From: an uncultured Acidobacteriota bacterium
GTDB lineage: Bacteria; Acidobacteriota; Thermoanaerobaculia; Gp7-AA8; JAHWKK01
DNA: 64,000 nt
Direction: 5' to 3'
NCBI GenBank assembly: GCA_963829355.1
Contig: CAWHHZ010000020.1
Span: 4,278 to 68,277, forward strand
The translations under genes were made by a program, and so were the position numbers. Below are positions 32,224 through 59,423 of this stretch, in pieces. Positions within the stretch are counted from its first letter, which is position 1. Each line of letters opens with the position of its first letter. Under the pieces are notes generated by a model. That model had not been told where the DNA came from and did no database searches. It saw only the letters and a list, made by a program, of their open reading frames with translations.

Positions 32224-32472
32224 TCATTTTACGGCGTCCCGTACCTTCGATATGCGATTTCGTCGAATTCGGGCGAACTCGTCCCTGCCCGAGTCCGCTC
32301 CAACCGCGGCGATCGCCCACATCACGTCCGGGTCGTCCGGCTCGCGCTCGAGTTCGTACCAGTGAAGCTCGAGCGACCTGGTGTCGCCGTCGTACGCTTC
32401 GGTTGCCACTGGAAGAAGCCGTTCATCGTGACTCTCCTGTGCGACACCTTGTGCCGGAAACCGACAGCTCAT
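32224..32472 (-). CDS. 76-aa-family small acidic protein, divergent copy B
   Basis: SHDERLLPVATEAYDGDTRSLELHWYELEREPDDPDVMWAIAAVGADS matches 35219..35449, then diverges. The only in-frame ATG lies inside the 20-nt repeat. Confidence 0.35.
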   Translation of the reverse strand: MSCRFPAQGVAQESHDERLLPVATEAYDGDTRSLELHWYELEREPDDPDVMWAIAAVGADSGRDEFARIRRNRISKVRDAVK

Positions 32473-32534
32473 GTCGAATCGCGACACCGCTTTGCGAAGT
32501 AAAGTTAAGATTCTGGCTCCGACCCTAACTTTAC
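32442..32534 (+). repeat. Composite repeat: about-20-nt tandem units plus T-hairpin
   Basis: Units CGACACCTTGTGCCGGAAAC / CGACAGCTCATGTCGAATCG / CGACACCGCTTTGCGAAGTA. T-hairpin GTAAAGTTAAG-ATTCTGGCTCCGAC-CCTAACTTTAC at 32499-32534. Confidence 0.8.
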
Positions 32535-33923
32535 GCGCGGTGGGGCTGCGACGCATGTCATCCACTCCAGCACGTCACGCTTGTACGCCGAATCATACTG
32601 AGTCGTCAGCGTGTAGCCGTTGACGGCCTGCACGACACTCATCAGCTCGATTCTGGGATCGATCCGGACCTCCCCCGCGCGGGGAACCTCCGCCGTTCTC
32701 GCGTCCGGCGATCTCACGAAATCCGTCATGAGCGACAGCGCGTGGCGGGAGACCCACTCGCGCTCCGGGTCCACCAGCATGTGCCCCATCCCGGGAAGGA
32801 CGACCGCCGAGATCCGTCCGTCGTTTCCGGGCCGATCCTCGAGCTCCGCCAGGCGACCTACGCTCGTCGCTACCGGCACGTTGTCCTGCTCGTCTTCTGC
32901 ACCATAGAGGACGAGTGTCGGAACGGAGTCACTGCCCCACGATCGAATCGGATCGTACTCGCCAACGCGCGCCCACCATCGCCAGCGCCAGTCATCCGGC
33001 TCCGAGGGCATGACCTCAGCGAACGGCGCCGCCGGACCCTCGAGCGCCGCTTGCCTCGCCTTCTCGTAGTCGATCCAGGAGAGCCGGCCAAGCGCGTGTT
33101 CCTGAATCAATTTCTGCAGGGCCATCGCGCTCGAAATCGCCTCTTGCGAAAATCCCTTCCCCTCCATGGTGTTCCGAATCTCGAAACCGATCTGATCGAA
33201 TACCGGGACCGCGGCCGACGAGATGCTCACCACGAATCCACCACGACCCGAGAATCGAGCAGCCAGTGGTGCGATCCAGCCACCCTGACTCAGACCCACC
33301 CAGCCGGTGTTCCCGGGATCGAGACCGGCCGTCTCCACCAGGAGATCGAAACCGGCAACGGCGTCGCGAGCCAGGGCATCGAACCCGACCTCCTTCCAAT
33401 CCCCTTCCGAGTCGCCCGAGCCCCGTTTGTCAGGGAAAAGAACGTCGACTCCCGCCACCGCCAGCGCATGCGCGAACGTGTAGGCCCACACGTTGTCGCG
33501 GTCGCTCGATCCGGACCCGTGGATCATCACTGCTCCCCGACCGGCGGGGCGTGAGGGCCGAAGCAGGATGCCCGCCAGGCGAACCCCGTCTGCGCTCCGA
33601 AACGTCACGCTCTCTACCTGATACGGTGCGTCCGGATCACGTGTCCATCGAGCACCATCCGGACTTACGAGCACCGCCTCTCCCTCAGCCGGCGCAATCC
33701 AGCGGAACGCGTTTTCCTCGTCGCCGATCTGGATGCTGCCGAAGGACGCATGATCAAAATCCAGACGTCGATGACTACCTCCAGGGCCCGGCGAGACGAG
33801 AACAGATGAGCCATCAGGCGTGCGGTACCAGCCGATCGGTGACGTCGCGCCTTCACCGTTTGCGGAGATCGTGATCGACGACAGCAGGGAGAAACAAAGG
33901 ATCTGGAGCAGAAATCGCTTCAC
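32505..33923 (-). CDS. Secreted alpha/beta hydrolase, with its 3' end running into the T-hairpin
   Basis: Signal peptide. HGSGSSDRDN and GLSQGGW (GxSxG). The last residues, APPRVKLGSEPES, are encoded by the repeat, so the gene looks truncated. Confidence 0.7.
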   Translation of the reverse strand: MKRFLLQILCFSLLSSITISANGEGATSPIGWYRTPDGSSVLVSPGPGGSHRRLDFDHASFGSIQIGDEENAFRWIAPAEGEAVLVSPDGARWTRDPDAPYQVESVTFRSADGVRLAGILLRPSRPAGRGAVMIHGSGSSDRDNVWAYTFAHALAVAGVDVLFPDKRGSGDSEGDWKEVGFDALARDAVAGFDLLVETAGLDPGNTGWVGLSQGGWIAPLAARFSGRGGFVVSISSAAVPVFDQIGFEIRNTMEGKGFSQEAISSAMALQKLIQEHALGRLSWIDYEKARQAALEGPAAPFAEVMPSEPDDWRWRWWARVGEYDPIRSWGSDSVPTLVLYGAEDEQDNVPVATSVGRLAELEDRPGNDGRISAVVLPGMGHMLVDPEREWVSRHALSLMTDFVRSPDARTAEVPRAGEVRIDPRIELMSVVQAVNGYTLTTQYDSAYKRDVLEWMTCVAAPPRVKLGSEPES

Positions 33924-34069
33924 TTCAGTAACACCTCATGGGACGTGAATTCGGACAGGACGGCAGAGGACCGAGCCCGCATCAGGAGCGTGTCCGGATC
34001 GGTGCGGCAGCCGACGATCCAGCCCCCGCGAGTGTGCGTGATCTCAGGTGCATTGTTTTTCTCGAGATG

Positions 34070-34092
34070 TGACTATTATCATAATCTGGTCA
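34070..34092. promoter_or_regulatory. AT-rich palindrome upstream of the hydrolase gene (possible TetR operator)
   Basis: TGACTATTATCATAATCTGGTCA contains ATTATcATAAT and lies between the TetR gene and the hydrolase start. Confidence 0.3.
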
Positions 34093-34195
34093 TAACAGTC
34101 TAGGGAGCTAAACCACGTCGGTCAACCCTTTCGCGCTGCGGGCGCGCTCCTGCTCCAACGGAGATGTCATCCAGGACTCAAGGGCCCGGCGTTTC

Positions 34196-34762
34196 TCAAC
34201 TCGCAAGGCCAGAGACGAGGAGTCTCCCGAGAGCCCTGGCCCTTTTTTCGACTCGCGATCGGCTTCCGAGATCCTCGGAGTCGAGGTCGAAAGGCAACAG
34301 ACTATTCGTTGCGAGTACGAGTAGCTCAGCGACGTCCTCTCCGTGATTTCTCTCTTCCAGAACAGTCTTCAATACGTGCGCTTCTCTCCGGAAGTGCTCC
34401 CTGCGTCGCTCGAGCAGATCAGGACGAATCGCCCTGAGCAGATCGTCCAGAGAACTCTCGTACTGAGTCACGGCCTCGAACCGAACCATGACACGGGCGG
34501 TGAGCATCCGTTCCAGGCGCTCAGCCCAGGGTGTGTCCTCTCCGGCAATCCTCTTCATCCGCTGAATCACGCGTTCCACGATGCCGTCCACGTGAGTGAG
34601 AACCAGTTCTTTTTTGCTGGAGAAATAGAGGTATATGGTGCCTTTGCCGACCCCGGCTCGATGGGCCACGCCTGCAACGGTCAATCCGTCGTAGCCCCTC
34701 TCGATGAGAAGCTCGCCAACTGCATCGATAATCCACGCTCGGATATCCTCGCGTGGCGCCAC
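34196..34762 (-). CDS. TetR/AcrR family transcriptional regulator
   Basis: N-terminal HTH YDGLTVAGVAHRAGVGKGTIYLYFSSKKEL. Confidence 0.85.
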   Translation of the reverse strand: MAPREDIRAWIIDAVGELLIERGYDGLTVAGVAHRAGVGKGTIYLYFSSKKELVLTHVDGIVERVIQRMKRIAGEDTPWAERLERMLTARVMVRFEAVTQYESSLDDLLRAIRPDLLERRREHFRREAHVLKTVLEERNHGEDVAELLVLATNSLLPFDLDSEDLGSRSRVEKRARALGRLLVSGLAS

Positions 34763-34960
34763 GACTCTCTTCTTCCGCTCTCTGATCGGGATCCCCTTCC
34801 GTCGTCGGTCCTCGACGAGATCCGCTCCTCGCCGAGCTTACGGCTGGGATATCGTAACCCGTATAGGTGAGTCGAGAACCGCCTTAGGAATTGCAGCCGT
34901 TCTTGGCCGGGCGCGGGGACGGTCTCGTACGTTGGACCGGTCGATCGTATGAACTCGGGG

Positions 34961-35041
34961 TCATGCCGAATCGCGACACCGCTTTGCGAAGTGAAGTTAG
35001 AATTCTGGCTCTGACCCTAACATTACGGGCTCTAACTTTAC
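34961..35041 (+). repeat. Composite repeat: one 20-nt unit plus a T-hairpin with a duplicated 3' arm
   Basis: GTGAAGTTAGA-ATTCTGGCTCTGAC-CCTAACATTAC, then GGG-CTCTAACTTTAC. Confidence 0.75.
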
Positions 35042-35114
35042 CCGTACGAGTAGAGTTGTCGGTCTGAGAGGCGGGCTGTCGCTGATCCGCCTCTCCCGCG
35101 GCGACACAAAGGTC

Positions 35115-35221
35115 ATTGATCCCGACGACTGTGGAAAGGGGAGCGGTACAGCCGAAGTGCGAGACAATCGCATCCAGAGCGCTACATTGCACTTTGGGTG
35201 TCCCCGGTTGGTGAGCACTCA
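35115..35221 (+). repeat. Z element, copy A (3' flank of the 76-aa gene)
   Basis: ATTGATCCCGACGAC...GTACAGCCGAAGTGCGAGACAATCGCATCCAGAGCGCTACATTGCACTTTGGGTGTCCCC. A near-identical copy lies at 36252-36356. Confidence 0.7.
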
Positions 35222-35449
35222 CCTCCGGTATCGCCGCAGCGCCTCGATGCTCTCGGCAGCTTCCTTCCGCGAACGGTACCCGTAGTCGATGATCGATACA
35301 GAGTCTGCTCCTACCGCGGCGATCGCCCACATCACGTCGGGGTCATTCGGTTCGCGCTCGGTGTCGTACCAATGAAGCTCGAGCGAGGTGGTGTCACCGT
35401 CGTACGCTTCGATCGCAATCGGCAGGAGCCGTTCGTCATGATCCGACAT
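35219..35449 (-). CDS. Small acidic protein (76 aa), unknown family, intact copy A
   Basis: MSDHDERLLPIAIEAYDGDTTSLELHWYDTEREPNDPDVMWAIAAVGADSVSIIDYGYRSRKEAAESIEALRRYRR. GAGG lies 13 nt upstream. Three further partial copies are present in the window. Confidence 0.55.
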   Translation of the reverse strand: MSDHDERLLPIAIEAYDGDTTSLELHWYDTEREPNDPDVMWAIAAVGADSVSIIDYGYRSRKEAAESIEALRRYRR

Positions 35450-35475
35450 CCCGCGATCGTACCTCGGCGACCTGC

Positions 35476-35757
35476 GGTTCTACTCCTCGTAGAATCCGAG
35501 ATCATCGTCAGGGTCTCGAACCAGCACACTGGAGGTGTGCCGGAAGGTAGCCGGTGGTAGCGCCGGAGGCGCAACCACCGGTGCAATGTCACCCACCCCA
35601 CCACGCAGCACCCCGGCAGGGGTGCCGGGACTCGCGGCCTGGGAAGACAGTTCATACCGCAGAGCGACACCTCATGCCGGAAACCGACAGCTCATGCCGA
35701 ATCGCGACGCGACTTTGCGAAGTAACGTTTGGATTCGAGGTCTGACCCCAAGTTTAC
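35476..35757 (+). repeat. Full composite repeat: Y fragment + H element + four 20-nt units + T-hairpin
   Basis: GGTTCTACtcctcGTAGAA; H at 35522-35627; 20-nt units at 35645-35720; T variant at 35722-35757. Confidence 0.8.
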
Positions 35758-35760: not shown

Positions 35761-36020
35761 CTAATCGTAGGCTTTGCTTCGGTGGCGAATATAGAGAATG
35801 TCTACGACCTTCTGTGTGTCGTCGATCGAGAAACGATGCGGCAGTCACCGGCCCGTAGCCTCCATCTCGCCGGACCTCCCTCGAGCTTCTTGACTCCGCG
35901 AGGACGAGGATCGAAAGAGAGAGAATCAATCTTCTTCGTGACGCGGGAGGCGACACTCGCTGGCAGCCGGTCGTACTCCCTGGCCGCCGAAGGTTTGATC
36001 AGGACCTTGTACTCAGCCAC
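35761..36020 (-). pseudogene. RelE/ParE-family toxin with a 1-nt frameshift
   Basis: VAEYKVLIKPSAAREYDRLPASVASRV...WRLRAGDCRIV. After a T3 run (expected T4) the +1 frame reads FSIDDTQKVVDILYIRHRSKAYD and stops at 35761. Confidence 0.65.
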
Positions 36021-36210
36021 GCATCTTGTGCTTGTCGCGCTTTGCAGCGCCACGCTTCACCGTCTCGAACGGAACGCTCTTCTCGTGCTCCCTGGACGAT
36101 GCCACGAGCTGGTCGTGGAAGTCTTCCCACAACTCGCCGTGGCGCTCGAGATCGATCTGCACGGCAACCTTCCGGCCCTCTTCATTCGTGACGTAGCGAA
36201 TCCCTTCCAT
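36013..36210 (-). CDS. Putative antitoxin partner of the RelE-like gene
   Basis: 65-aa ORF directly upstream of and overlapping the toxin start by 8 nt. GGAGA lies upstream of the ATG. Confidence 0.55.
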   Translation of the reverse strand: MEGIRYVTNEEGRKVAVQIDLERHGELWEDFHDQLVASSREHEKSVPFETVKRGAAKRDKHKMRG

Positions 36211-36251
36211 GATCTATCTCCTGGGTCAAGGATAACCGATCGTGTTAGGAG

Positions 36252-36356
36252 TTTGATCCCGACGACCGGGGAACGGGAGCAGTACAGCCGAAGTGCGAAA
36301 CATCGCATCCAGAGCGCTACATTGCACTTTGAGTGTCCCCGGGTGGTGGGCACTCA
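36252..36356 (+). repeat. Z element, copy C
   Basis: Near-identical to 35115-35221. Confidence 0.7.
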
Positions 36357-36464
36357 CCTCCGGTGTCGCCGCAGCGCTTCGATGCTCTCGTCAGCTTCCT
36401 CTCGCGAACGATCCCCATAGTCGATGATCGACACCGAGTCCGCTCCAACCGCGGCGATCGCCCA
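36354..36464 (-). pseudogene. 3' fragment of the 76-aa gene family
   Basis: Encodes WAIAAVGADSVSIIDYGDRSREEADESIEALRRHRR only. It abuts the truncated TcmP-like gene. Confidence 0.65.
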
Positions 36465-36465: not shown

Positions 36466-37085
36466 GGTTCGACCATTACATCTTCGTCGAGCAGCGGAAG
36501 GATCGTTGTCGGGAGCTGGAGGAGCTGAGAACGGAGTTCCCGGAGCAGGCGGCTGAGATCGAGATCAGACAGGGCGATGCGAATCAGCAGATTCAGGATC
36601 TTTGTGGCAAGAGCTGTCAGAGCCATCGTGCGGTGCTGTTCCTCGATCCTTATGGCACCCAGGTTCACTGGGAGACGATCGAGGCTGTCGCCAGAACGGA
36701 GGCGATCGACATGTGGCTTCTGTTTCCGCTCGGCATCGGCGTCAATCGAATGCTCCCGCCATCTGGAGACGTGCCTCAGACGTGGAAGGAGACGCTGACT
36801 CGGCTCCTCGGTACTTCAGACTGGTACGATGAGTTCTATCGTGTGGAGCATGACGATACGTTGTTCGGGCCGGAGGAGCGCGTGGTGAAGGCGAGCGTCG
36901 ATGTCATCGGGCGTTACTTCAACGATCGCCTGAAGCAGATCTTTCCTGGTGTGGCGGAGCAGCCGGGCGTGCTGCGCAACTCCGCGAATTGCCCGCTCTA
37001 TCTCTTCTGCTTCGCGGCAGGGAACAAATACGGCGCGCCGATCGCACTGAACATCGCGAATCACCTTCTGAAGGAGCTGCGCTGA
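36466..37085 (+). pseudogene. tcmP: Three-Cys-motif partner protein (TcmP-like), 5'-truncated
   Basis: ...AVLFLDPYGTQVHWETIEAVARTEAIDMWLLFPLGIGVNRML... The N-terminal part of the track ORF is the antisense of the 76-aa gene fragment and Z element. Confidence 0.55.
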
Positions 37086-37828
37086 TGGCTGCCGGGACAG
37101 GAATCGAGTGGACCGAGGCGACGTGGAATCCCGTGACGGGTTGCACGAAGATCAGCCCGGGGTGTAAGCACTGCTATGCCGAGCGGATGGCGGAGCGTCT
37201 GCGGCTCATGGGGCAGGCGAACTATCGAAACGGCTTTCGGCTCACCTTGCAGCCCCACATGCTCGAGCTTCCGCTGAGGTGGAAGAAGCCTCGGACCATC
37301 TTCGTCAACTCGATGAGCGATCTCTTTCACGACGGCGTGCCTCTCGACTACATCCGGCAGGTCTTCGACGTGATGAAGCGCGCATCGTGGCACCGCTTCC
37401 AGGTGCTGACGAAACGAGCGAAGAGGCTGGCAGAGCTCGACCCTCACCTGGAGTGGCCGGAGAACGTCTGGATGGGCGTCAGCGTCGAGAGCTCTTCATA
37501 CCGCCATCGCATCGACGCCCTCCGCCAGACCGATGCCCGCATCAAGTTTCTCTCCCTCGAGCCGCTCCTCGGCCCGCTCCCCGACTTGAACCTCGACGGC
37601 ATCAACTGGGTGATCGTCGGCGGCGAATCCGGACCCGGCGCCCGTCCAATGGAGCCGGACTGGGCTCTCGACGTGAAGCGTCAATGCCACGATGCGTTGG
37701 TTCCTTTCTTCTTCAAGCAGTGGGGCGGGACAAACAAGAAAAAGGCGGGGAGAGTGCTGGAGGGGCGGACGTGGAATGAGATGCCGGCGGGCATGTCAGG
37801 CAACCCAGCATTCGCTCAGTCTTCATAG
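37085..37828 (+). CDS. DUF5131 / phage Gp37-Gp68 family protein
   Basis: [31 protein letters not shown] three-Cys N-terminus. The ATG overlaps the upstream stop (TGATG). Confidence 0.8.
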
Positions 37829-37841: not shown

Positions 37842-38216
37842 TCAGTCGCCGGCAATGGGCAGCTTCCGAACTCGGATGCGACTGCGCTCGATCACGATGA
37901 CTGATCCCTCATCGACTGCGTCTTCGATGCTGGCCAGGTTCGTCAGGATCAGCATCACTTGATGCGGCGGGCGGTGAACTCCCTCGCCTCGAAACAGGAT
38001 CACGGAAGGTATCGACGCTTTTCGTCCGGACAGGATCGCTCCGAAGTCGGTATCGGCTGAGATCAGACATCGCCGCTCTCGCGCTGCCAACTCCAGGACC
38101 GCCGGATCAGCGGCCGATGCCAGTCCGAGATCGCGGATGTGAACTGCGTCGTGACCGGCCGTGCGCAGACCCTCTGCCACGACAGGAGACAGTGCGTTGT
38201 CGACGAGAAACTTCAC
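37842..38216 (-). CDS. DUF5615 (Mut7-C/PIN-like) putative toxin
   Basis: MKFLVDNALSPVVAEGLRTAGHDAVHIRDLG...LISADTDFG. 4-nt overlap with the upstream DUF433 gene. Confidence 0.7.
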   Translation of the reverse strand: MKFLVDNALSPVVAEGLRTAGHDAVHIRDLGLASAADPAVLELAARERRCLISADTDFGAILSGRKASIPSVILFRGEGVHRPPHQVMLILTNLASIEDAVDEGSVIVIERSRIRVRKLPIAGD

Positions 38217-38443
38217 CTCGGTTCGAGAACGGGAAGCTGACGCTCCCTCAGAGCCTCGGCGGCAAAGCGGAGTGCTTCGCGCAGATCCTCCGCCTCGAGG
38301 TCCGGATAATCACCGAGGATCTCCGCTTCAGTCGCCCCCTCGGCAAGCATTCCCACGAGGGTCGCAACCGGAATGCGCAGCCCCCGAATGCACGGCACAC
38401 CACCCATCTTCTCGGGCTCAATCGTGATTCGCTCAAAGCTCAT
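38213..38443 (-). CDS. DUF433 putative antitoxin
   Basis: ITIEPEKMGGVPCIRGLRIPVATLVGMLAEGATEAEILGDYPDLEAEDLREAL. Start taken at the ATG at 38443. Confidence 0.7.
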   Translation of the reverse strand: MSFERITIEPEKMGGVPCIRGLRIPVATLVGMLAEGATEAEILGDYPDLEAEDLREALRFAAEALRERQLPVLEPR

Positions 38444-38523
38444 CTGAGAAGGATAACCGATCGTACTCAGGAGATTGATCCCGGCGAACATGGAGATCCG
38501 GGGTCAGGTTTGTGACCGACGGT

Positions 38524-38610
38524 GGTTCTACTGACCGTAGAAGTTTTGGCGGAATCGGCCTCGGATTCTACATCCCGTAGATTTGACCGCCGACCAAAGA
38601 CCTGACCCCA
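38524..38610 (+). repeat. Y element
   Basis: GGTTCTACtgaccGTAGAA...GGAATCGG...TTCTACatcccGTAGA-TTTGACCGCCGACCAAAGACCTGACCCCA. Confidence 0.8.
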
Positions 38611-38649
38611 AGGCTCCGCAAAGCTCCGCAAAGCTCCGAAAGCTCCGAG
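38611..38649 (+). repeat. 10-nt tandem repeat (GCTCCGCAAA-type)
   Basis: aggctccgca aagctccgca aagctccga aagctccga. Homologous tract with one more unit at 48281-48320. Confidence 0.75.
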
Positions 38650-38667
38650 GTCCCTAACTTCCCCTTT

Positions 38668-38723: not shown

Positions 38724-38786
38724 TTCTAGCATGCGCCCATCGGGTCTGTGCGCCTGCGGCTGTGGGTCGGGCAATGGGCGACGCTC

Positions 38787-38877
38787 GGTTCGTGACTCGA
38801 TCGTAGAAATCTGAGCGGAATCGGCTTCAGATTCTACATCTCGTAGATTCGACCGCCGACCAAAGACCTGGCCCCAG
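38787..38877 (+). repeat. Y element (first arm degenerate)
   Basis: ...GTAGAAATCTGAGCGGAATCGGCTTCAGATTCTACATCTCGTAGATTCGACCGCCGACCAAAGACCTGGCCCCAG. Confidence 0.8.
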
Positions 38878-38890: not shown

Positions 38891-38978
38891 GGTTCTACTG
38901 ATCGTAGAAATCTGAGCGGAATCGGCTTCAGATTCTACATCTCGTAGATTCGACCGCCGACCAAAGACCTGGCCCCAG
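38891..38978 (+). repeat. Y element (tandem with the previous copy)
   Basis: GGTTCTACtgatcGTAGAAATCTGAGCGGAATCGGCTTCAGATTCTACATCTCGTAGATTCGACCGCCGACCAAAGACCTGGCCCCAG. Confidence 0.85.
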
Positions 38979-51828: not shown

Positions 51829-51829
51829 C

Positions 51830-52076: not shown

Positions 52077-52150
52077 GGGCGGTGCTGTCCAGTACCTCGA
52101 TCACGAGGGCACGGCTACCGCAATGCGGTTCTTAGAGGTACGATTGACCT

Positions 52151-52402
52151 ATGGCCAGCGTGCAGGTTGAGTTACCGGAGAGCGTTCTCGCGGCATTACG
52201 GAAGGCCCCTCATGAGGTTGGCCCGGAGATGCGCATTGCCGCAGCAATTCATTGGTATCAGCAGAGCTTGATCTCTATGGAGAGGGCGGCAGAAGTCGCG
52301 GGGATGAACCGAACCGAGTTTCTGGCGGAGCTGTCCCGTCGGCGGGTCGATGTGTTCGTGGTAGATGATGAGGACCTCGCGCGAGAGCTCGAGAATGCCT
52401 GA
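52151..52402 (+). CDS. UPF0175 family antitoxin, copy 2 (identical to copy 1)
   Basis: The 83-aa translation is identical to 44830..45081. Confidence 0.7.
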   Translation: MASVQVELPESVLAALRKAPHEVGPEMRIAAAIHWYQQSLISMERAAEVAGMNRTEFLAELSRRRVDVFVVDDEDLARELENA

Positions 52403-52880
52403 TCGTCTCGTCGTCAACGCTTCCCCATTGATCTTTCTCGGCAACGGCAATCGGCTCGAGCTGCTGCGAGATTTCACTGAAGGACCTGTGATCGTACCCG
52501 GGGTCGTCCTGGACGAGATCCTGTCAGGCGGGCATCACGACCGGGCGGCCGAGGCGGTGAGAAAGTCGAGCTGGCTTCAGGCAGGCACTCCCGACTCAAT
52601 GCCGCCAGAAGTGCTGGAGTGGGATCTCGGTGCGGGTGAGTCCGCCGTCATCGCGATCTCACTGGAGACTGAAGGTGCGAGGCCAGTGATCGATGATCTT
52701 GCTGGCCGCCGGTGTGCGAGAGCGTTCGATCTGGACGTGATCGGAACTCTGGGTCTTGTGATCGCAGCGCATCGTCGCGGAACGGTCGACGACCCTCGGA
52801 GAGTTCTGCTCGAACTGAGGGATGCCGGAATGTGGCTCTCCGATGAGGTATTGGAGAAGGCCCTCAAGAAGAACGACTAA
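52395..52880 (+). CDS. DUF3368 (PIN-like) putative toxin, copy 2 (identical to copy 1)
   Basis: The translation is identical to 45074..45559. Confidence 0.7.
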   Translation: MPDRLVVNASPLIFLGNGNRLELLRDFTEGPVIVPGVVLDEILSGGHHDRAAEAVRKSSWLQAGTPDSMPPEVLEWDLGAGESAVIAISLETEGARPVIDDLAGRRCARAFDLDVIGTLGLVIAAHRRGTVDDPRRVLLELRDAGMWLSDEVLEKALKKND

Positions 52881-52956
52881 TCGCTTTTCGACAGGTCGCT
52901 CTCCTATCGTCCTCCCCACCACGGAAGATCCGGCGGAGGTTTTTGCGCTCGACAGC

Positions 52957-53070
52957 GGTTCTACTGACCGTAGAACTTTGAACGGAATCGGCTTCGGATT
53001 CTACCTCTCGTAGAATTGACCGCCGACCAAAGACGTGGCCCCCAGCCTCGAAGACGTGGCCCCCAGCCTC
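52957..53070 (+). repeat. Y element with a duplicated tail
   Basis: GGTTCTACtgaccGTAGAA...TTCTACctctcGTAGAATTGACCGCCGACCAAAGACGTGGCCCCCAGCCTCG, then a repeat of AAGACGTGGCCCCCAGCCTCG. Confidence 0.8.
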
Positions 53071-53094: not shown

Positions 53095-53129
53095 GGAAAC
53101 TCATATTTTGAGCTCTGAGGTTAAGTTCT
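53095..53129 (+). repeat. T'' hairpin variant
   Basis: GGAAACTCATA-TTTTGAGCTCTGAG-GTTAAGTTCT. Confidence 0.65.
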
Positions 53130-53148
53130 GGGAAATGTCGCGCATAAC

Positions 53149-53253: not shown

Positions 53254-53592
53254 ATGGCTGGGATCGTGGCCGAACGGCTCGATAGCATGAGGAAAAAGAC
53301 TGGCATCACCGGCCGGGATGTGGCGCAGCTTCTGGATACGACGCCTGAGACGGTTTCCAGATGGAGCTCCGGAAAGGTCGAGCCGCAGAGAGATCGGCTG
53401 CACAGACTGCTGGCTCTCGAATTCATTCTCGATGAGCTGCTCGAGTTCTACAGCCGCGACGATGCCAGACTATGGTTGTTCACGCCTCACCGTCTGCTCA
53501 GCGGTCGGACGCCGGCGGAAAAGATCTCCGAGGGGCAGGATGATGAAGTACGAACCATCATCGCGCAGCTACGCGACGGAGCGTACGTCTGA
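53254..53592 (+). CDS. Xre-HTH / DUF2384 antitoxin (ParS/MbcA-like)
   Basis: HTH (GITGRDVAQLLDTTPETVSRWSSGK) plus a DUF2384-like C-terminus (WLFTPHRLLSGRTPAEKI). AGGAGG lies upstream. Confidence 0.75.
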   Translation: MAGIVAERLDSMRKKTGITGRDVAQLLDTTPETVSRWSSGKVEPQRDRLHRLLALEFILDELLEFYSRDDARLWLFTPHRLLSGRTPAEKISEGQDDEVRTIIAQLRDGAYV

Positions 53593-53594
53593 GC

Positions 53595-54104
53595 GTGATC
53601 TTCTCTCCCGATCGCAAGATTCTGGAGGTCGTCGGTGCCATTGAACCGGCACCTCTCGAGGCGTCGGTGTTCCGCTGGTGCTTTTCCCACGTCGATCCGC
53701 TACGGCCGAATCGAAGCGGAGCGCGATGGAACCCACCAGACGTCGAAGCCCTTTATGCGAGCCTCGAGCGGGACGTCTGTCTGGCGGAGATGAACCATCT
53801 TCTGGATCTTCACTCCATACCGATCACCAAGAGCAGGGTTTTGTGCACCATAGAGGTCAGCCTCCAGTCGGTCCTCGAGCTGACTGAAGACACTCTGGCC
53901 GAACTGGGTTTATCTGCAGACGTGCTGAGCAGTGTCGATCTCAGCAGATGTCAACAGGTTGGCGGCGCAGTGCAGTGGCTCAATCATGACGGCTTGCTCG
54001 TCCCGTCCGCACGCCACGAGCAAGGTCGGAACCTCGTGATCTTTCAGACAAATCACGATGAAGAGTCGATCGTCGAGCTCACCGACAAAGCTCCCCTCGA
54101 ATGA
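53595..54104 (+). CDS. RES domain toxin (ParT/MbcT-like)
   Basis: GARWNPP...ALYASLE...LLVPSARHE supplies the R/E/S positions. GTG start 3 nt after the antitoxin stop. Confidence 0.75.
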   Translation: MIFSPDRKILEVVGAIEPAPLEASVFRWCFSHVDPLRPNRSGARWNPPDVEALYASLERDVCLAEMNHLLDLHSIPITKSRVLCTIEVSLQSVLELTEDTLAELGLSADVLSSVDLSRCQQVGGAVQWLNHDGLLVPSARHEQGRNLVIFQTNHDEESIVELTDKAPLE

Positions 54105-54135: not shown

Positions 54136-54172
54136 GTCAAGTTACTTTTCTAGCTCCGACGTTAACTTTACT
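54136..54172 (+). repeat. T' hairpin (variant arms)
   Basis: GTCAAGTTAC-TTTTCTAGCTCCGAC-GTTAACTTTACT. Confidence 0.65.
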
Positions 54173-54386: not shown

Positions 54387-54499
54387 ACCTTCCCAGTGGC
54401 ATTATCCAATCCTACCTCGTTCGTGATCAGCGCGTGGGTAGGTGGGCAGGTCTGTCGTCCAAAAAACAGGTCCGGAGTCAAGTCTTTGGTCGACGATGT

Positions 54500-54583
54500 G
54501 GTTCTACTCAGAGTAGAGTTCGCGCGGAATCGGCTTAAAATTCCACATCTCGTTCCCTTCTAAGACCTGACCCCAGAGGTCCC
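54500..54583 (+). repeat. Y element
   Basis: GGTTCTACtcagaGTAGAG...GGAATCGGCTT...CTAAGACCTGACCCCAGAGGTC. Contains the stop codon of the AbiEii-like gene. Confidence 0.7.
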
Positions 54584-55969
54584 TTCTTTTTCCTTAAATC
54601 GGCCGGATGTATCCTCGGCGTCCGCGACAGTCGTAACCTTGTAATCCTTGTGAGGACGAATCGAAGAGTCCGGCTTCACTCGCTCGAACTCGCGACCACA
54701 CTGCTGACACTCCACCACATACTTTGCTCGAGACGATCTTCTCGACCTTGCGGGTCGGGAACCGAAACCGGAACCTCCGACGATCGGTGGTGTTGAGACG
54801 CGTCCGGAAGAGGAAAACTCTACTCGAAAGACCGGTGTGAATGACTGGTTCATGACCTCGATGTTTTCAATTCGGTCGAGGCGATACGCCCGGATCTGCC
54901 CGTCGGTGTGCCGCCGCGCGAACAGCAGAACGTTGCCGTCCCTGCTCTCGCGCAACGAATACGGTTCTATCGGTCGACGGCTTCCCTGGTATCCCAGATT
55001 GATCAGCAGCCGGTTCACTCCGGCGAAACGAATCCGCTCGATGACAGAACCAGAGCCCCATGATCGGATCGTCGGCGGAACATGGAACGGAACTGCTGAC
55101 GACGCACTGGGGACTCTCATCTCGGTGAGCGCCTCTCGCGGTAGCGGTGTCCCATTCAGCCAGTCGAAGAGGTTCTCGAGCTCCGACCAGTAATCGGTGA
55201 ACGGGGGCAACGCGGGAAGCTGGTGCGCGAGCATGTTCTCCCATTCGGTCTCGAGCAGTTCCCGCGCAATCTCGGTGATCACTGTCTCAGGTGAAGGCAG
55301 GGCGACACCTTTCGTTTCGCACTTATCCTTCAGGATCGACGCAATCTCTGGACCGCGAAGCTCAAACTCTTCGCGTCGGTGAAGGGTCACGATGTCGAAG
55401 AGGTCGCGTGGTCGCCCACGTTCGCCCATCGCCCGAATCTTCTCGGCGAATACCCCTTCGAGACTGTAGCAGAGCACCGTCGCCGGATCGGGCCAGGCAT
55501 CCGGATATGGGTGAGTGATCTCACGCCGCACTGTCTCCCGCACGACGACCTCAGCAAGCAGATCGAGCTTGATCGAGAACTCCATTTGCTGTCCGCCGAG
55601 GCCGCGGTAGTAGATCTTTCCCTGAAGGCTGCCGGGGCCTCGCGGCTTCAACAGCGGAGGACGGGCGAGAAGCTGGATTCCGGACTCCTCTTCGATCTCG
55701 CGAAGAACCCGTTCCAGAAGGGGTGCGACGGCGTCGGCGTCGATTGGACCATCAGGTAGAACGGTGAAGTCGAGATCCTCGGAGAAGCGGTAGGTCTCGA
55801 TGAAACACTTCTTCAGGCAGGTGCCGCCCTTGAATGCCCACGAACTGCCGAGAACCTCATCTCTGCCGATTCCCCACAGGAGCCATCCGATGACCCAGTC
55901 CTTCTCCACCACTTTTTCGGCGAGCTGCCACTCGACCGCTCGATCCTGCAGATCCAGTCGTGTAATCAT
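54560..55969 (-). CDS. abiEii: AbiEii/AbiGii-family nucleotidyltransferase toxin fused to a WYL-like domain and a CxxC tail
   Basis: WAFKGGTCLKKCFIETYRFSEDLDFT (DUF1814/AbiEii). C-terminal RRPIEPYSLRESRDGNVLLFARRHTDGQIRAYRLDRIENIEV (WYL-like), then ECQQCGREF. ATGA overlap with the upstream gene. Confidence 0.7.
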   Translation of the reverse strand: MITRLDLQDRAVEWQLAEKVVEKDWVIGWLLWGIGRDEVLGSSWAFKGGTCLKKCFIETYRFSEDLDFTVLPDGPIDADAVAPLLERVLREIEEESGIQLLARPPLLKPRGPGSLQGKIYYRGLGGQQMEFSIKLDLLAEVVVRETVRREITHPYPDAWPDPATVLCYSLEGVFAEKIRAMGERGRPRDLFDIVTLHRREEFELRGPEIASILKDKCETKGVALPSPETVITEIARELLETEWENMLAHQLPALPPFTDYWSELENLFDWLNGTPLPREALTEMRVPSASSAVPFHVPPTIRSWGSGSVIERIRFAGVNRLLINLGYQGSRRPIEPYSLRESRDGNVLLFARRHTDGQIRAYRLDRIENIEVMNQSFTPVFRVEFSSSGRVSTPPIVGGSGFGSRPARSRRSSRAKYVVECQQCGREFERVKPDSSIRPHKDYKVTTVADAEDTSGRFKEKEGTSGVRS

Positions 55970-56780
55970 GTTGAAGTCCCCGCGCCGATCTCGACATTCA
56001 CTCTCAGATTCCACTCCTTGGTGATCGTTCCCTCGAGATTCACATCCGGATCGAGGTAGGTCAGGCCCTGGCTGATCCTCTCCTTGCAGGACGCGACCAA
56101 ATCGGGAGCATCAAACGCGAGGCTGGTGACGAGGTACCCCATACGCTTGAAGACGGTCTTGTTGCCGAGCCGGTCGCCATAGCTGACCAGAAGGTCGTCG
56201 TCGCGGTGTTCGCTTTCCAGGTAGTTCGTCAGGATGTCCGACGCGTGGCGAATTCCTCCCCCCATCCATGGCTCGTCGAGAATGTCGATGACGGTGCGGG
56301 CAGGATCCGATACGTTCACCCGGTTCTGACCGCGCCACACGCGTTTCAGTCCGAAGTGCATCGTCTCCTGACGGAACTTCAGTCGTATCGGGCTCTGCTG
56401 AATCTGGTCGGTACGCGATCGGATGTTGGCCGCCGTGACGACGACGATTCCGCGGAACAATTGCTCCGTCAGTCCCCAGTGATTCGCCGCACTCCATCCA
56501 CCGATGTAGCACGGCTCGACTCGACTGAAGCGGCCACCCACGGATCAGCGAGCCATGCACCTGGATCCTTGGTGCCCAATGGGACGGTGCCATATAGCCC
56601 CTGCTTGACCCGGGTGAGCCATCCGCGCTTCGTCAGGTACGCAAGAAGTCGCCGGGTACGGTCCCGTGGCAGATCCAGCGCGCCGGCAGCCTCGGCAGCC
56701 GTGAAGGGTCCGGTGAAAGCCCTGTGTAGTGCGTCGAGCCGAAGCCGATTCTCCCGTTCGATCCCTTGAGGTACATCCAT
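55966..56780 (-). pseudogene. abiEi: AbiEi-family antitoxin, split by a frameshift near 56.5 kb
   Basis: The N-terminal HTH part (FTAAEAAGALDLPRDRTRRLLAYLTKRGWLTRVKQGLYG) is in the frame of ORF 56469..57362. The C-terminal part (EPCYIGGWSAANHWGLTEQ...DPARTVIDILDEP) is in the frame of 55966..56541. Confidence 0.65.
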
Positions 56781-56990
56781 AGTGCGAATTATCTCATACA
56801 ACGGGTAATATTGCACTGTGGCTATACCGAGTAACTCGAGGGTCCTTTTCTCGTGCTCGAAACGACTCGGCTCCATCACGATTTCCCATTTCGGGACTGA
56901 TCGTACCTCGGTCGCCCGATGATCCACTCCTCGTGGACCCACGGGCTGAGTCCACTCATCAACCGTATGAGCCACGTCTGGCCAGGCGGT

Positions 56991-57101
56991 GCCGTAGACT
57001 CGACCGCCTACCATAGACCGGGCACCGAACGTCTGTGCGGAATCGGCTTCGGGTTCTACCTCTCGTAGATTGACCGCCGATCGCAGACCTGACCCCCAGA
57101 G
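56991..57101 (+). repeat. One and a half Y elements
   Basis: CGTAGACTCGACCGCCTACCATAGACCGGGCAC, then ...GGAATCGGCTTCGGGTTCTACctctcGTAGATTGACCGCCGATCGCAGACCTGACCCCCAGAG. Confidence 0.7.
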
Positions 57102-57170
57102 TTCGCGGAGATTGATCCCGACGAATGAGGATCCGCGAACGCTCGGGTATTTCAGGCCGGTCGTCCAGAA

Positions 57171-57226
57171 CCACGACATCACTTTGCGAAGTAAAGTTAA
57201 GATTCTGGCTCCGGCCCTAACTTTAC
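57171..57226 (+). repeat. One 20-nt unit plus T-hairpin
   Basis: CCACGACATCACTTTGCGAAGTA, then GTAAAGTTAAG-ATTCTGGCTCCGGC-CCTAACTTTAC (57191-57226). Confidence 0.8.
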
Positions 57227-57358
57227 TCTTCCAATCGTTCTCGCCAACATTGCGACGCTGATCTCCGGCACGTTGCGCGGAAACATCACGCGCTGATGAG
57301 CTCGAACCATCTGTTGCGGTGCTCGACTCCGGATCGAGAGGCTCTCTCGTAGCCACAG

Positions 57359-58396
57359 TCACAGCTTTATCCGGCGTATCCTCACACCTGATGAGTCAGA
57401 CTGGACAACCGTGAAGTCGATGATACCGATCGTCTTCCCCTCTTCCGACTCGGCGCGTACTCGCCATCTGCCGGGGGCGGCATTGGCCTTCGAAGAATAT
57501 CCGCGATACCCATCGGCCCGGCCACTTCGAATCGTGAAAGGAATCACGTCCGAGGTGATCCATTTGCCGGCGACTTCATCCCGTTTCTGCCATCGGTGCC
57601 GGACCGTGGTCTCGAGTCCACCGGGAATGAAGATCGACGAGAAGCAGAAGACCGGCTCCGAGTCCCGCCGGTGGAACACGGGTGAAGAGCGAAGCCAGAA
57701 CCGTCGCGGCCGGGACGGCTCGATCTGCGCGGTGTAGTGGCCGTCTCGCTTCTCGACATGATGGGCGATGAAAAGCTCCTTTTTAACCAGCGGGACCGGA
57801 GGAAGAATGTTGGCGACATTGAGAATCAGGAGTACCGCACCGACCGCGAAGGATGGAAGGACCGATGCCTTCTTCTTAGACAGAAGCCACAGGCCCAGCG
57901 TCGCCCCGAGCGCGGCACCGATGCTCACATAGAACCACGTCGGCTGCATGCTGCGGAAAGCATGGGGCAGTGCGAAGTTGAAGAACATGATTCCGCAGGT
58001 CGTAAACAGCGTCCAGGAGAGCGTGAGCCGTGAGTAGCGGTGTTCGACAAACTCGTTCCCGATCAGAAGGACGGTCAGCCCCAGCACGAGAATGAACCCA
58101 CCGATCTCACTGGAGCTGAGAAAATAGAAAATTACGAGAGCACTGAAGATCCCTCCGAAGAAAAACTGGAGCGCGACGTTCTGATAGCCCTTCCACCGGT
58201 GCTCGATCTCTCGACCGACGACGAGGAGAATGGTCGCGGCGATGAGGTAGTAAACCGTGAGGACCACGAAATCGATCGGGACGATCCGGCGGCCCAGTGT
58301 GAAGGCGTCGAAAACGAATCCTCCGAAAAACGATATTGCGGGAAGGGTCCGGGCAAGACGAGGATACCGCGGGCTCAGTTCGTCCGGGTTCAGCAT
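57359..58396 (-). CDS. Polytopic membrane protein with a DUF2914-like C-terminal domain, paralog 2
   Basis: 345 aa, collinear with 22239..23276. About 25 substitutions by my manual alignment. Confidence 0.6.
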   Translation of the reverse strand: MLNPDELSPRYPRLARTLPAISFFGGFVFDAFTLGRRIVPIDFVVLTVYYLIAATILLVVGREIEHRWKGYQNVALQFFFGGIFSALVIFYFLSSSEIGGFILVLGLTVLLIGNEFVEHRYSRLTLSWTLFTTCGIMFFNFALPHAFRSMQPTWFYVSIGAALGATLGLWLLSKKKASVLPSFAVGAVLLILNVANILPPVPLVKKELFIAHHVEKRDGHYTAQIEPSRPRRFWLRSSPVFHRRDSEPVFCFSSIFIPGGLETTVRHRWQKRDEVAGKWITSDVIPFTIRSGRADGYRGYSSKANAAPGRWRVRAESEEGKTIGIIDFTVVQSDSSGVRIRRIKL

Positions 58397-58491
58397 TCAG
58401 GGCCCCGATTGTAACCGGGAAGCCGAGCCATCGTCCGGGAGCGTTCTGGCCCCAACTTAAAATCGTCCCGGAGCGGTAAGCGCTTTGTGAA

Positions 58492-58527
58492 GTAAAGTTT
58501 AGTTTGGAGGTCCGGCCCCAACTTAAC
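58492..58527 (+). repeat. T-hairpin
   Basis: GTAAAGTTTAG-TTTGGAGGTCCGGC-CCCAACTTAAC. A loop-plus-arm fragment (TTCTGGCCCCAACTTAAAA) lies at 58445-58464. Confidence 0.7.
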
Positions 58528-58529
58528 AG

Positions 58530-58776
58530 CGGGAGATGGCGAAGCTCGTCAATCGTTACCCCGCGCTTGCTGGGCGCCGGCAAAGGCCGGAACGCCGCCG
58601 ATCCATGGGTCATCGCCCTGGCGAAAATCGATAGACGCGACGTCGTGACCTACGAGACCCGCTCGACGAAAATCGAGAAACCAAAGATCCCAGATGTCTG
58701 CGACGCCGAAGGAATCGAGACCATCGATTTGATTGAGGTCGTCCCCCGCGAAGGCTGGAGCTTCCGGTCGGGGTGA
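58530..58776 (+). pseudogene. C-terminal fragment of a DUF4411 (PIN-like) gene
   Basis: ...AADPWVIALAKIDRRDVVTYETRSTKIEKPKIPDVCDAEGIETIDLIEV. It begins directly after the T-hairpin with no plausible N-terminus. Confidence 0.5.
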
Positions 58777-58802
58777 GATGTGCGGATCCGAAGACCACCG
58801 CC

Positions 58803-58840
58803 TCGAAAACTTACCTTTCTAGCTCCGACGTTAAGTTTCC
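58803..58840 (+). repeat. T' hairpin
   Basis: TCGAAAACTTACC-TTTCTAGCTCCGAC-GTTAAGTTTCC. Confidence 0.75.
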
Positions 58841-58843
58841 TTG

Positions 58844-58969
58844 ATCTCCGAGTATCTGGGCATCTCCCAGCCCGCCGTTTCCCAGATGCTGGAGACGGCC
58901 AGGGCACTCCAGCGAAAGGACGAGAAGTTCGGTCGAGCGGTTGAAGGCATCCGAAAACTTATAATTTGA
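58844..58969 (+). pseudogene. C-terminal remnant of the HTH gene family, ending in T''
   Basis: ISEYLGISQPAVSQMLETARALQRKDEKFGRAVEGIRKLII-stop. It starts right after T' and stops inside T''. Confidence 0.55.
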
Positions 58970-58989
58970 GCTTTGAGGTTAAGTTTTCC
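58952..58989 (+). repeat. T'' hairpin variant
   Basis: CGAAAACTTATA-ATTTGAGCTTTGAG-GTTAAGTTTTCC. Confidence 0.7.
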
Positions 58990-59120
58990 CCTCGCTGCAT
59001 CGCCCTCGGTCGTCGTCACGGCTGCAAAAACGAAAGGCAAAAGACAAAGACGCACCTAGGAAAATACAAAGGCAAAAGCAACTACAGATCTACCCTACTT
59101 GACAGGGTCACTCCATATCA

Positions 59121-59198
59121 GCCGGTGGTGGCGCCGGAGGCGCAACCACCGGCTCAAGGCCCCCACCCGACCACGCAGCACCCCGGCAGGGGCGCCGG
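59121..59198 (+). repeat. Partial, decayed H element (hairpins 2 and 3 only)
   Basis: CCGGTGGTgGCGCCggaGGCGCaACCACCGG ... GCACCCCggcaGGGGCGC, with one stem mismatch. Partial Y tails follow near 59240-59290 and 59345-59385. Confidence 0.6.
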
Positions 59199-59423
59199 AC
59201 TACGGACGCCGCCAAGTCGGGTTCGAGTCCTCACCCCGCGGCATGTACGTCTCGTAGATCAACCAAAAACAAAAGACCTGGCACTGAGGTCGGCTTTTCG
59301 GTCAACTGCTGACATCCGCAGAAGTCGGGTCAGGAAAAGGCCAGAATTCTACTCGTTAGACTCTGTCGCAAAATCGAAGACCTGACCTGCGTTTGCACGT
59401 AGCTTCGGAAGGGGCTGCACGGG

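Follow-up and report, generated by a model that had tools for sequence, protein, structure and literature searches.

A co-oriented array of hairpin repeats linked to a Y1 transposase gene in a predicted acidobacterial defence island

What can place 17 copies of one small hairpin on a single DNA strand, among toxin-antitoxin (TA) and defence genes that lie on both strands? The question is raised by a 27-kb array (32.2-59.4 kb) within 64,000 nucleotides of contig CAWHHZ010000020.1 from an uncultured acidobacterium, a stretch referred to below as the window. To judge from its sequence, the array is part of a variable defence/TA island directly downstream of tehA/SLAC1 in a Thermoanaerobaculia-like acidobacterium; its repeats comprise the hairpin T, a longer element Y and two further modules, H and D4. 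We are confident, short of certainty, that these repeats belong to a transposase system of the TIRYT type, while the proposal that the array arose through cutting and rejoining at the foot of T is more tentative and open to doubt. The combined account, in which the repeats would be non-autonomous cis elements of a TIRYT-type Y1 transposase and the array a product of that mechanism, is in our judgement the probable one.

The T hairpin and its junctions

The + strand carries 17 T hairpins between 32,499 and 58,988, along with a further copy that has lost internal sequence (58441-58470). The census combined a fuzzy search with the loop core TTCTGGCTCCGAC and diverged copies of types C and D taken from the repeat families; in the 64-kb window the fuzzy search found no convincing copy on the - strand or outside these limits. 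A covariance model built from the T copies and run on both strands of the 64 kb gave 16 separate matches, all + (T4a and T4b overlap), and nothing further scored except weak reverse reads of the T sites themselves. The companion repeats have the same polarity: 12 full or partial copies of Y (38.5-57.1 kb), four copies of H inside the array with a fifth at 23,430-23,549, and six copies of D4, in which a unit of ~20 nt is directly repeated three to four times, are every one on the + strand. Beyond these, one piece of Y lies at 14,415, and degenerate sequence resembling Y is present at 23.7 kb and at 59.2-59.4 kb. Within the array region, a self-BLAST of the window returned direct repeats only. 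The original prediction had claimed 17 co-oriented T hairpins between 32.2 and 59.4 kb, four H with a fifth at 23.4 kb, and about 15 Y; the counts of T and H and all orientations hold, and the number of Y inside the array comes down to 12.

On the premise, valid only in part, that the copies are independent, the chance of finding 17 of 17 T on one strand is 2 x 0.5^17 = 1.5e-5, and that of finding all 17 within 27 of 64 kb, on the same premise, is ~5e-7. An Rfam scan of 32-60 kb retrieved no family for T, Y or H, even at E<=1. The uniform orientation, together with the head-to-tail stacking of 5'-truncated units, is unusual and unexplained.

Each T is formed by a single stem of 9-11 bp and a conserved 14-nt loop, (W)TTCTRGCTCYGRC, 36-40 nt in total. 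The stem reads AAAGTTA/TAACTTT in type A and AAACTTAAC/GTTAAGTTT in type B; between the two, G-C has become C-G and U-A has become A-U by double changes, while the loop is unchanged. Paired cells make up 73% of the T alignment against 65% in shuffles, and none of 500 shuffles reaches the observed value. These compensatory stem changes around a conserved loop suggest that the hairpin is under selection, with the covariation amounting to few independent events because the changes separate subfamilies. T starts with GTAAAG or GAAAAC, and the complement of the type D loop is GGGGTCAGACC.

The T copies vary in what they carry on the 5' side and agree in where they end. Across 136 pairs of T, homology ends at most 5 nt 3' of the hairpin, and on the 5' side it runs from 17 nt up to 94 nt ungapped or 349 nt gapped. 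The 5' extent is the hairpin alone in T9 (48199-48234), T12 (54136-54171, an A/B hybrid) and T14 (58492-58527, which with the deleted copy Tx occupies 58441-58527). It takes in ~25 nt of a transposase 3' end in T5 (44598-44633, type B, with a perfect 11-bp stem ACTTAAC/GTTAAGT) and T15 (58805-58840, type B), and D4 in T1 (32499-32534, type A, D4 at 32441-32485) and T8 (47946-47981, type A, D4 at 47867-47932). It reaches into H in T4a and into a gene of 76 amino acids (aa) in T3 (35722-35757, type D, the imperfect-stemmed end of an H-D4-T composite) and T7 (46227-46262, type D, with a degenerate stem). T1, which scores 58.8 bits with the covariance model, is entered by the reading frame of a - strand hydrolase. 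The remaining copies are T11 (53095-53130, type C), T13 (57191-57226, type A) and T16 (58953-58988, type C); all T copies and Tx are on the + strand.

Directly 3' of T, truncated sequences begin. T10 (51792-51827, type B) is followed by the C-terminus of a DUF5131 gene (51826-52076, +), T14 by that of a DUF4411 gene (58528-58776, +) and T15 by the C-terminus of a 5'-truncated transposase gene. A truncated N-terminal piece of the 76-aa gene stands after T6 (45898-45933, type C), and 3' halves of Y follow T7 (46264-46314) and T9 (48241-48287). Behind T4a lies T4b, a 28-nt 5'-truncated T that keeps only the loop and the 3' arm, head-to-tail with it (43696-43759 for both), and behind the type A hairpin T2 a 15-nt orphan second 3' arm (35027-35041; 34991-35041 with T2). 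Y is mostly right-anchored as well: three copies of a DUF3368 3' end plus Y end at Y, an exception being the pair 38570-38723/48241-48395, which shares its right flank too. No target-site consensus was found 3' of T, and where fragment junctions could be set against intact copies (DUF5131, the 76-aa gene, the transposase and Y) microhomology was at most 1 nt. The right-anchored pattern is unlike that of segmental duplication. Because homology is anchored on the right and truncated genes lie directly 3', it points to the 3' foot of T as a strand-specific breakage-joining point.

The transposase gene linked to T and a related lineage

The sequence to the left of the type B and C hairpins is coding; one frame reads ...LTHRMIGEYLGISPSAVSQMLRAATELERKDRQFGEAIHRIRASKT up to a stop, TAA, in the 5' arm of T10. 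It belongs to a C-terminal helix-turn-helix (HTH) remnant of a Y1 HUH transposase of the RAYT/TIRYT type (51522-51801, +; ~90 codons with one frameshift), recognised with HMMER and tblastn. A second C-terminal remnant of 42 codons (58841-58966, +), 63% identical to protein P0124, stands directly 3' of T15 and is ended by T16. The third and shortest (23560-23620, +; ~20 codons) lies outside the array, beside H (23430-23549) and a degenerate Y-like stretch (~23700-23800). The original prediction had missed all three; its statement that the locus lacks a recombinase gene is borne out in so far as no recombinase domain (Phage_integrase or other) was found among the ORFs (open reading frames) scanned across the window, 32 kb to the left and 5 kb to the right of the array.

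An exhaustive HMMER search with the remnant ORF 51604-51798 against 1.84 billion representative proteins returned 31 proteins, short C-terminal fragments included, among them P0132 (E=4.9e-6) and P0148 (E=2.1e-4); a word-indexed homologue search with the HTH remnant returned nothing. P0148 (331 aa) combines an N-terminal Pfam Y1_Tnp domain (E=3.6e-8) with a C-terminus homologous to the window remnant, and it aligns with the whole NCBIfam profile for the REP-associated tyrosine transposase (RAYT; REP, repetitive extragenic palindrome) at 77.4 bits, below the cut-off of 80. P0132 matches the part of that model with the Tyr motif; P0131, P0132 and P0147 are N-truncated versions of a P0148-type protein. 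By tblastn the window holds the C-terminal domain only (51522-51834 and 58841-58987). An assignment of the remnant to the DnaA_C domain, which rests on the description in PMC6006769 and a manual alignment, was not confirmed by Pfam or NCBIfam, which gave a Sigma70_r4-type HTH only.

A hairpin homologous to T overlaps or follows the stop codon of the transposase gene in five unrelated contigs (L010, L012, L013, L014 and L015). In L012 this hairpin, GAAAACTTATAAATTGAGCTCCGACGTTAAGTTTG, scores 31.7 bits with the T model. L010 has a full-length gene, whose 3' hairpin (5972-6012) is matched by an inverted copy upstream (4866-4900) over 34 of 35 nt, with GGTGTCAG. Counting the window, there are thus six loci at which T, or its homologue, is demonstrably the hairpin overlapping or following a Y1 transposase gene's 3' end.

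Y starts GGGGTCAGG and finishes CCTGACCCC; its ends read GGGGTCAG. From its sequence, Y is best described as a gene-less inverted pair of terminal repeats with ends of the GGGGWSAS type. The full copy at 38494-38616 (+) has terminal inverted repeats of ~24-44 nt and three small internal hairpins; further full copies lie at 45605-45726 and 52926-53049, at the 3' ends of the two UPF0175/DUF3368 pairs, and at 48809-48925, preceded by a 5'-truncated DUF3368 3' end (48721-48763). Partial or degenerate copies, all on the + strand, comprise two 5'-truncated ones in tandem (38779-38876 and 38891-38977), a degenerate 3' piece (40274-40326), a degenerate copy (54468-54581) and two overlapping pieces (56992-57033 and 57027-57099). 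A derivation of Y from Tn3-like miniature elements, suggested by the GGGG ends, was discarded: no 5-bp target duplication surrounds the full copy at 38494-38616, and its ends agree with the TIRYT motif. Two accessory modules, H and D4, accompany type A T. H is a run of three consecutive hairpins (35511-35642) that passes through D4 (GACASCTCATGCCG..., 35643-35712) into T3; H plus D4 likewise leads into T4a (43504-43686) and T7 (46036-46217), and a further H (59120-59214) stands at the right edge of the array, before degenerate Y-like stretches (~59240-59395). All of these are on the + strand.

Small TTCTAC-N5-GTAGAA hairpins occur inside Y and also alone upstream of the 76-aa gene (35475-35500, 45996-46020), and T finishes at its 3' end with sequences similar to their 5' arm (TTCTAC, TTTAC, TTTTCC); the likeness hints that T, Y and the GTAG mini-hairpins share recognition motifs.

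Homologues of the 76-aa ORF, 85% identical, are found on five JGI contigs (L016-L020), where T-like hairpins occur in both orientations; the uniform orientation is therefore a property of the window array and not of the T family. Two of these contigs, L016 and L020, share a 1503-bp stretch at 99.8% identity, beyond which they are unrelated, and both breakpoints fall at the outer arm (immediately before AAGTT) of two inverted T-like hairpins. The 1503-bp unit contains the 76-aa gene, a Phd/YefM-like gene and a 139-aa gene. To account for this T-bounded, TA-like unit in two contexts one could invoke transposition, recombination among dispersed copies of T, or the presence of two copies in a single genome; an inversion between the inverted T-like hairpins was rejected, as the flanks are not reverse complements. 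In L020 the flanks of the unit (100-125 and 1605-1630) join into a perfect 18-bp palindrome, GGAGCCCTG followed by CAGGGCTCC, with the unit exactly central, a sequence arrangement that suggests that the unit was inserted at the tip of a hairpin or else that this copy has longer terminal inverted repeats.

Known systems and rival explanations

Among published systems, the best match that the sequences allow is TIRYT, or TnpA-Y1 subclass 2.1, and not classical GTAG-REP/RAYT or IS200/IS605. Proteins of subclass 2.1, present in ~15% of the strains sampled by Quentin et al. (PMC6006769), are long, have a C-terminal HTH (Bac_DnaA_C, HTH_23 or HTH_28) and have been equated with TIRYTs (Quentin et al. 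2018, PMC6006769). TIRYT genes are flanked by inverted repeats with the consensus GGGG[AT][CG]A[CG], that is GGGGWSAS (PMC3733652, PMC6006769); acidobacterial TIRYTs are a sharply defined group (Di Nocera et al. 2013, PMC3733652), and some of the terminal repeats form families of single copies, dimers and clusters (PMC3733652). We file T and Y as repeat families of a TIRYT-type system because of the GGGGWSAS-type ends of Y, the complement of the type D T loop and this acidobacterial description. Shared with it are a RAYT-like Y1 HUH protein with a C-terminal HTH (seen in the homologue P0148, the window having HTH remnants alone), inverted repeats that flank the gene, may overlap its 3' end and carry GGGGWSAS (L010, and the Y ends in the window), the acidobacterial clade, and the occurrence of terminal repeats singly, as dimers or in clusters. 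The window differs in that it holds the 3'-type end only, ~17 times, on one strand, with variable 5' truncation and head-to-tail; moreover, its T is a true hairpin with a conserved loop that delimits TA/defence modules, and an intact transposase gene is not nearby.

With REP, BIME and REPIN elements the repeats share the character of short extragenic hairpins tied to a domesticated Y1 HUH enzyme, and the combination of T, Y, H and D4 resembles a BIME mosaic. Classical REPs are imperfect palindromes of 20-40 nt that number in the hundreds and are dispersed over the intergenic regions of a genome. T lacks their GTAG (or CGTC) foot tag, GTAG being found only in the mini-hairpins inside Y; and whereas the REPs of BIMEs alternate and REPINs are inverted pairs, T in the window is never inverted and is confined to 27 kb. 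The likeness to IS200/IS605 and PATE elements lies in Y1 HUH chemistry, subterminal hairpins read on one strand, orientation-biased insertion and non-autonomous derivatives. The differences are a transposase homologue that is long (331 aa), RAYT-like and equipped with an HTH, ends in L010 that are mutually inverted, unlike the co-oriented left-end and right-end hairpins of IS608, and an array without any left-end-type element; the window yielded neither a TnpA core nor a TnpB domain. Of the readings in the original prediction, that of a REP/RAYT or IS200/IS605-PATE-type field is borne out in kind, as the HTH remnant and the hairpin after the gene in five loci indicate, and is narrowed to TIRYT, or subclass 2.1.

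A constant hairpin end with a variable opposite end, capture of neighbouring genes and tandem accumulation in one orientation are features of IS91/ISCR elements and Helitrons, and the window array is like them in this. These elements differ in having Y2 or Rep-helicase HUH enzymes and defined ori and ter sequences. Among the window ORFs scanned there was no Rep/Y2 HUH gene, although no search was aimed at such genes.

We propose that a transposase encoded intact elsewhere in the genome would recognise T on one of the two strands, with the DNA in single-stranded form, cut at the hairpin's 3' foot and join the cut end to another cut end. TnpA-REP enzymes are known to cleave single-stranded REP substrates 3' of the hairpin (Corneloup et al., PMC8266576). 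Repeated T-ended insertions of variable 5' extent beside T ends already in place would build up units in one orientation, head-to-tail; other events would delete from T into adjoining DNA and so leave truncated genes directly 3' of T, and the addictive TA and defence modules would be the survivors between junctions. TIRYT or subclass 2.1 transposases, the long RAYT-like Y1 kind with an HTH at the C-terminus, are functionally uncharacterised and are not known to mobilise repeats. The locus ties one TIRYT-type clade to a defined hairpin whose 3' foot is a recurrent strand-specific junction, and the enzyme-substrate pair is directly testable with a T oligonucleotide and a P0148-like protein. T junctions delimit TA/defence modules in a variable island. 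The case bears on how defence islands are assembled and eroded, and the uniform orientation with right-anchored stacking around such modules is an unusual, testable form of TIRYT-type repeats.

Several observations weigh against this account. Quentin et al. (PMC6006769) report no REP-like repeats beside subclass 2.1 genes. TIRYT, REP and REPIN elements form inverted pairs or alternate, and ~35 uniformly oriented repeats are unlike that; membership of the family would by itself leave the uniform orientation unaccounted for, because neither the published elements nor L016 and L020 are uniform. Within 1.5 kb, L016 and L020 carry T-like copies in both orientations, and their breakpoints are on the 5' side of T, as opposed to the 3' side in the window. 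By tblastn, the window has neither an intact Y1 transposase nor a remnant of the catalytic domain, so that the enzyme-site link rests on gene adjacency in the window and in the five loci. Pfam recognised in the window remnant only Sigma70_r4_2 (E=2e-5), with Bac_DnaA_C, HTH_23 and HTH_28 not above threshold. Outside the window, the T pattern STTANNNTTCTRGCTCYGRCSYTAAS had two matches in a collection of 185,579 species' genomes and two in JGI metagenomes, which is the chance expectation, the four being single copies on contigs of differing GC content; a looser T pattern gave only chance matches in coding sequence among viral contigs. Finally, the contig comes from a metagenome assembly, in which misassembly at repeats is possible; an independent assembly (Logan contig L001, 997 bp) confirms one stretch, 51950-52946, at 100%.

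The arrangement, with sharp repeat boundaries and about one module per interval, retains the cassette-like look noted in the original prediction. It might be taken for the work of an HUH-driven cassette system, in which the Y1 enzyme would cut at T 3' feet, release what lies between two T of like orientation in the form of a single-stranded circle and reinsert it 3' of another T. The co-orientation, the junctions lying exactly at the 3' foot, the very short stacked units (28-nt T4b, the 15-nt orphan arm of T2), which look like repeated events at one site, and the T-bounded unit of L016 and L020 all speak for it, as does the insertion of single-stranded circles 3' of a short target by IS608-type Y1 enzymes (PMC6006769). 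We nevertheless regard it as unlikely. The 98%-identical UPF0175/DUF3368 copies are bounded by T on neither side, about half of the units begin with a gene fragment and several have no gene, the 8-kb interval from T3 to T4 carries five modules, neither circle junctions nor presence/absence polymorphism of window units was observed, and the L016/L020 unit lies between inverted and not direct T copies. If it were true, the array would be an HUH-based gene-capture system, a mechanistic analogue of the integron without a tyrosine recombinase, and an uncharacterised transposase subclass would gain a role in building defence/TA islands. The attC sites of integrons span roughly 55-140 nt, the shortest being ~55 nt. 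Their architecture of R''-L''...L'-R' boxes with an unpaired central spacer, extrahelical bases and a variable terminal structure (PMC4889954) is not that of T, an uninterrupted stem with a 14-nt conserved loop in 36-40 nt, which leaves no room for L boxes, spacer or extrahelical bases; the original prediction was correct that the repeats are not canonical attC. Its other reading, that the array belongs among integron-like arrays or CALINs (clusters of attC sites lacking an integrase) or forms a new class of cassette array, is not supported as regards membership. An atypical integron with short (T) or composite (H-D4-T) attC sites and IntI encoded outside the window, where the 70.6-kb source contig continues for ~6.6 kb, would share with integrons and CALINs (Cury et al. 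2016, PMC4889954) the co-oriented hairpins acting as single-strand structures, the one small module per interval, the many TA cassettes as in a sedentary chromosomal integron, and the non-essential location. The R-box consensus RYYYAAC/GTTRRRY fits the type B stem (ACTTAAC/GTTAAGT) and not types A and D (AAAGTTA/TAACTTT), and it gives no polarity because the type B stem is the same on both strands. T1 and its flanks do fold into an extended 58-nt stem with one-sided bulges; T8 does so partly and the other T not at all, and type B stems are bulge-free. With ORFs split almost evenly between the strands, numerous fragments, units that hold no gene, no IntI or other tyrosine recombinase domain in the ORFs scanned, an HUH transposase gene with the T hairpin at its 3' end at six loci, and a UPF0175/DUF3368 duplication without T boundaries, we consider the integron explanation very improbable. 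The locus bears, too, on the mimicry of integron-like architecture, and such arrays could confound automated cassette-array or CALIN calls in environmental genomes.

The repeats could also be passive relics of old, dead insertions, stacked by ordinary processes (segmental duplication, unequal crossing-over, deletion) in an island the cell can do without, and co-oriented through tandem duplication. Many copies are indeed degenerate (the T7 stem pairs at 6 of 11 positions, and several T fold with z-scores near 0), the transposase remnants are all pseudogenes, and at least one fragment junction, at 36464, where a 76-aa fragment is joined to TcmP, is free of repeats. Segmental duplications are present too: 44792-45730 and 52113-53053, which hold the UPF0175/DUF3368 pair, are 98% identical, start at no repeat and end at Y, and 57334-58425 is 92% identical to 22216-23305. 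Yet segmental duplication predicts two-sided homology, and in all 136 T pairs the sequence shared 3' of the hairpin is 5 nt or less; the compensatory stem changes around a conserved loop and the T-like breakpoints between L016 and L020 also argue against a purely passive origin, which we hold to be rather improbable. Less credible than any of these is that the repeats are regulatory RNA elements (terminators, mRNA stabilisers or small RNAs) multiplied by happenstance. A passage of PMC3733652 describes REPs elsewhere as RNA stabilisers or terminators, and some Y lie just 3' of + strand operons; but orientation tracks the DNA strand, Y being 3' of the + strand UPF0175/DUF3368 genes and 5' of a - strand DUF433 operon, T has no U-tract on its 3' side, and the Rfam scan mentioned above was empty. 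The cut-and-rejoin account is the one we prefer.

Genes and minor repeats of the island

The best relatives of the flanking tehA/SLAC1 product are proteins from metagenome-assembled genomes of Thermoanaerobaculia (Acidobacteriota), at 70-72% identity. Gene order is conserved with two relatives through molybdopterin oxidoreductase, Rieske, DUF6755 and SLAC1, and this synteny ends with the stop codon of SLAC1, 32,189; at the corresponding site one relative has housekeeping genes and no island and the other a type I restriction-modification (RM) system and Fic (L006 11089; L009 11080). Because synteny breaks downstream of tehA/SLAC1, the array can be read as a section of a variable defence island, set at a hot spot peculiar to this lineage. 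Further left, the window encodes a 2072-aa protein with ~600-nt internal repeats (14549-20767, -) and a 512-aa collagen-triple-helix-repeat protein (24378-25916, -). An outlying cluster 9 kb left of the array (22216-23800), all on the + strand, consists of a second DUF2914 gene, a partial and a full H, the HTH remnant and the degenerate Y-like stretch; no repeat marks the boundaries of the DUF2914 duplication at 22216-23305.

Some 17 genes of the array are on the + strand and ~13 on the -, with at least ten gene fragments among them. The mixed strands, the TA/defence modules with TcmP/DUF5131 and a three-gene operon, and a count of at least nine fragments had all been called in the original prediction, and the family scans agree with it. 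PADLOC identifies AbiE, a type IIG RM system at the right edge of the array, and the candidates PDC-M41 (TcmP/DUF5131) and PDC-M24B.

From the left, an alpha/beta hydrolase (32505-33923) and a TetR regulator (34196-34762) occupy 32505-34762 on the - strand. They are followed by the 76-aa ORF (35219-35449, -), which has no family match; it is always just left of H, D4 or T, and its paralogue or fragments lie at 32224-32431, 36354-36464 and 45934-45991. The idea that this ORF is a transposase N-terminus was dropped, as it has no similarity by eye to the N-terminus of P0148. In the related lineage (L016 2141-3138) the 76-aa gene heads a three-gene operon with a Phd/YefM-like antitoxin and the 139-aa protein; the window lacks the two genes downstream, T2 standing where they would be. 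The operon may be an uncharacterised three-component TA module.

Next come a weakly ParE/RelE-like gene (35802-36053) paired with a RelB-like one (36013-36210), together 35802-36210 on the - strand, an N-terminally truncated TcmP with DUF5131 (36474-37828, +), the PDC-M41 match, and a pair of DUF5615 (PIN-like) and DUF433 (37842-38491, -). A fusion protein of 987 aa (40423-43386, +) joins a Ser/Thr kinase to FGE-sulfatase-like and dienelactone-hydrolase-like parts, its kinase domain scoring ~290 bits with the PADLOC PD-T4-6 models. A second DUF433/DUF5615 pair (43883-44505, +), a diverged RES 5' fragment (44671-44754) and UPF0175/DUF3368 copy 1 (44830-45559, +) precede a HigB-like toxin with an HTH_3/Peptidase_M78 (ImmA/IrrE-like) partner (46386-47823, +). 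The three-gene operon (49078-51461, +) encodes a weak DUF6978, a DUF1828 protein (the PDC-M24B match) and a 361-aa protein; UPF0175/DUF3368 copy 2 (52151-52880, +), which lies within the L001 match, and a ParS-like antitoxin with a RES toxin (53254-54104, +) follow. AbiEii-WYL and AbiEi (54560-56780, -) form the PADLOC AbiE system, and a DUF2914 membrane protein is encoded at 57359-58396 (-).

AbiEi is apparently frameshifted: its C-terminal domain is in ORF 55966-56541 (PADLOC AbiEi profile positions 87-258), and the N-terminal winged helix is in another frame at ~56469-56780, at the end of ORF 56469-57362. The split gene could be a pseudogene or an assembly error.

Tandem runs of a 9-nt unit, AAGCTCCGC, stand directly 3' of two Y copies (38610-38650 and 48281-48320). 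They belong to 155-nt segments with 98.7% identity to each other, which also take in the 3' end of an 84-aa gene. Another motif, ...GATTGATCCCGACGA..., is repeated just upstream of several - strand TA operons (35116-35200, 36230-36330, 38450-38500 and 57108-57135) and may be a shared promoter/operator or a further repeat module. Far from the array, a 235-nt self-complementary stretch (2299-2533) holds several GCCCGC-GAAG-GCGGGC hairpins and an Rfam match to the Acido-Lenti-1 "sRNA" (2479-2529, 46.6 bits). A 76%-similar stretch (L016 1867-1959), below the Rfam threshold there, adjoins T-like hairpins upstream of the 76-aa gene; instead of a small RNA gene, the Acido-Lenti-1 motif may represent one more REP-like repeat module of the DNA.

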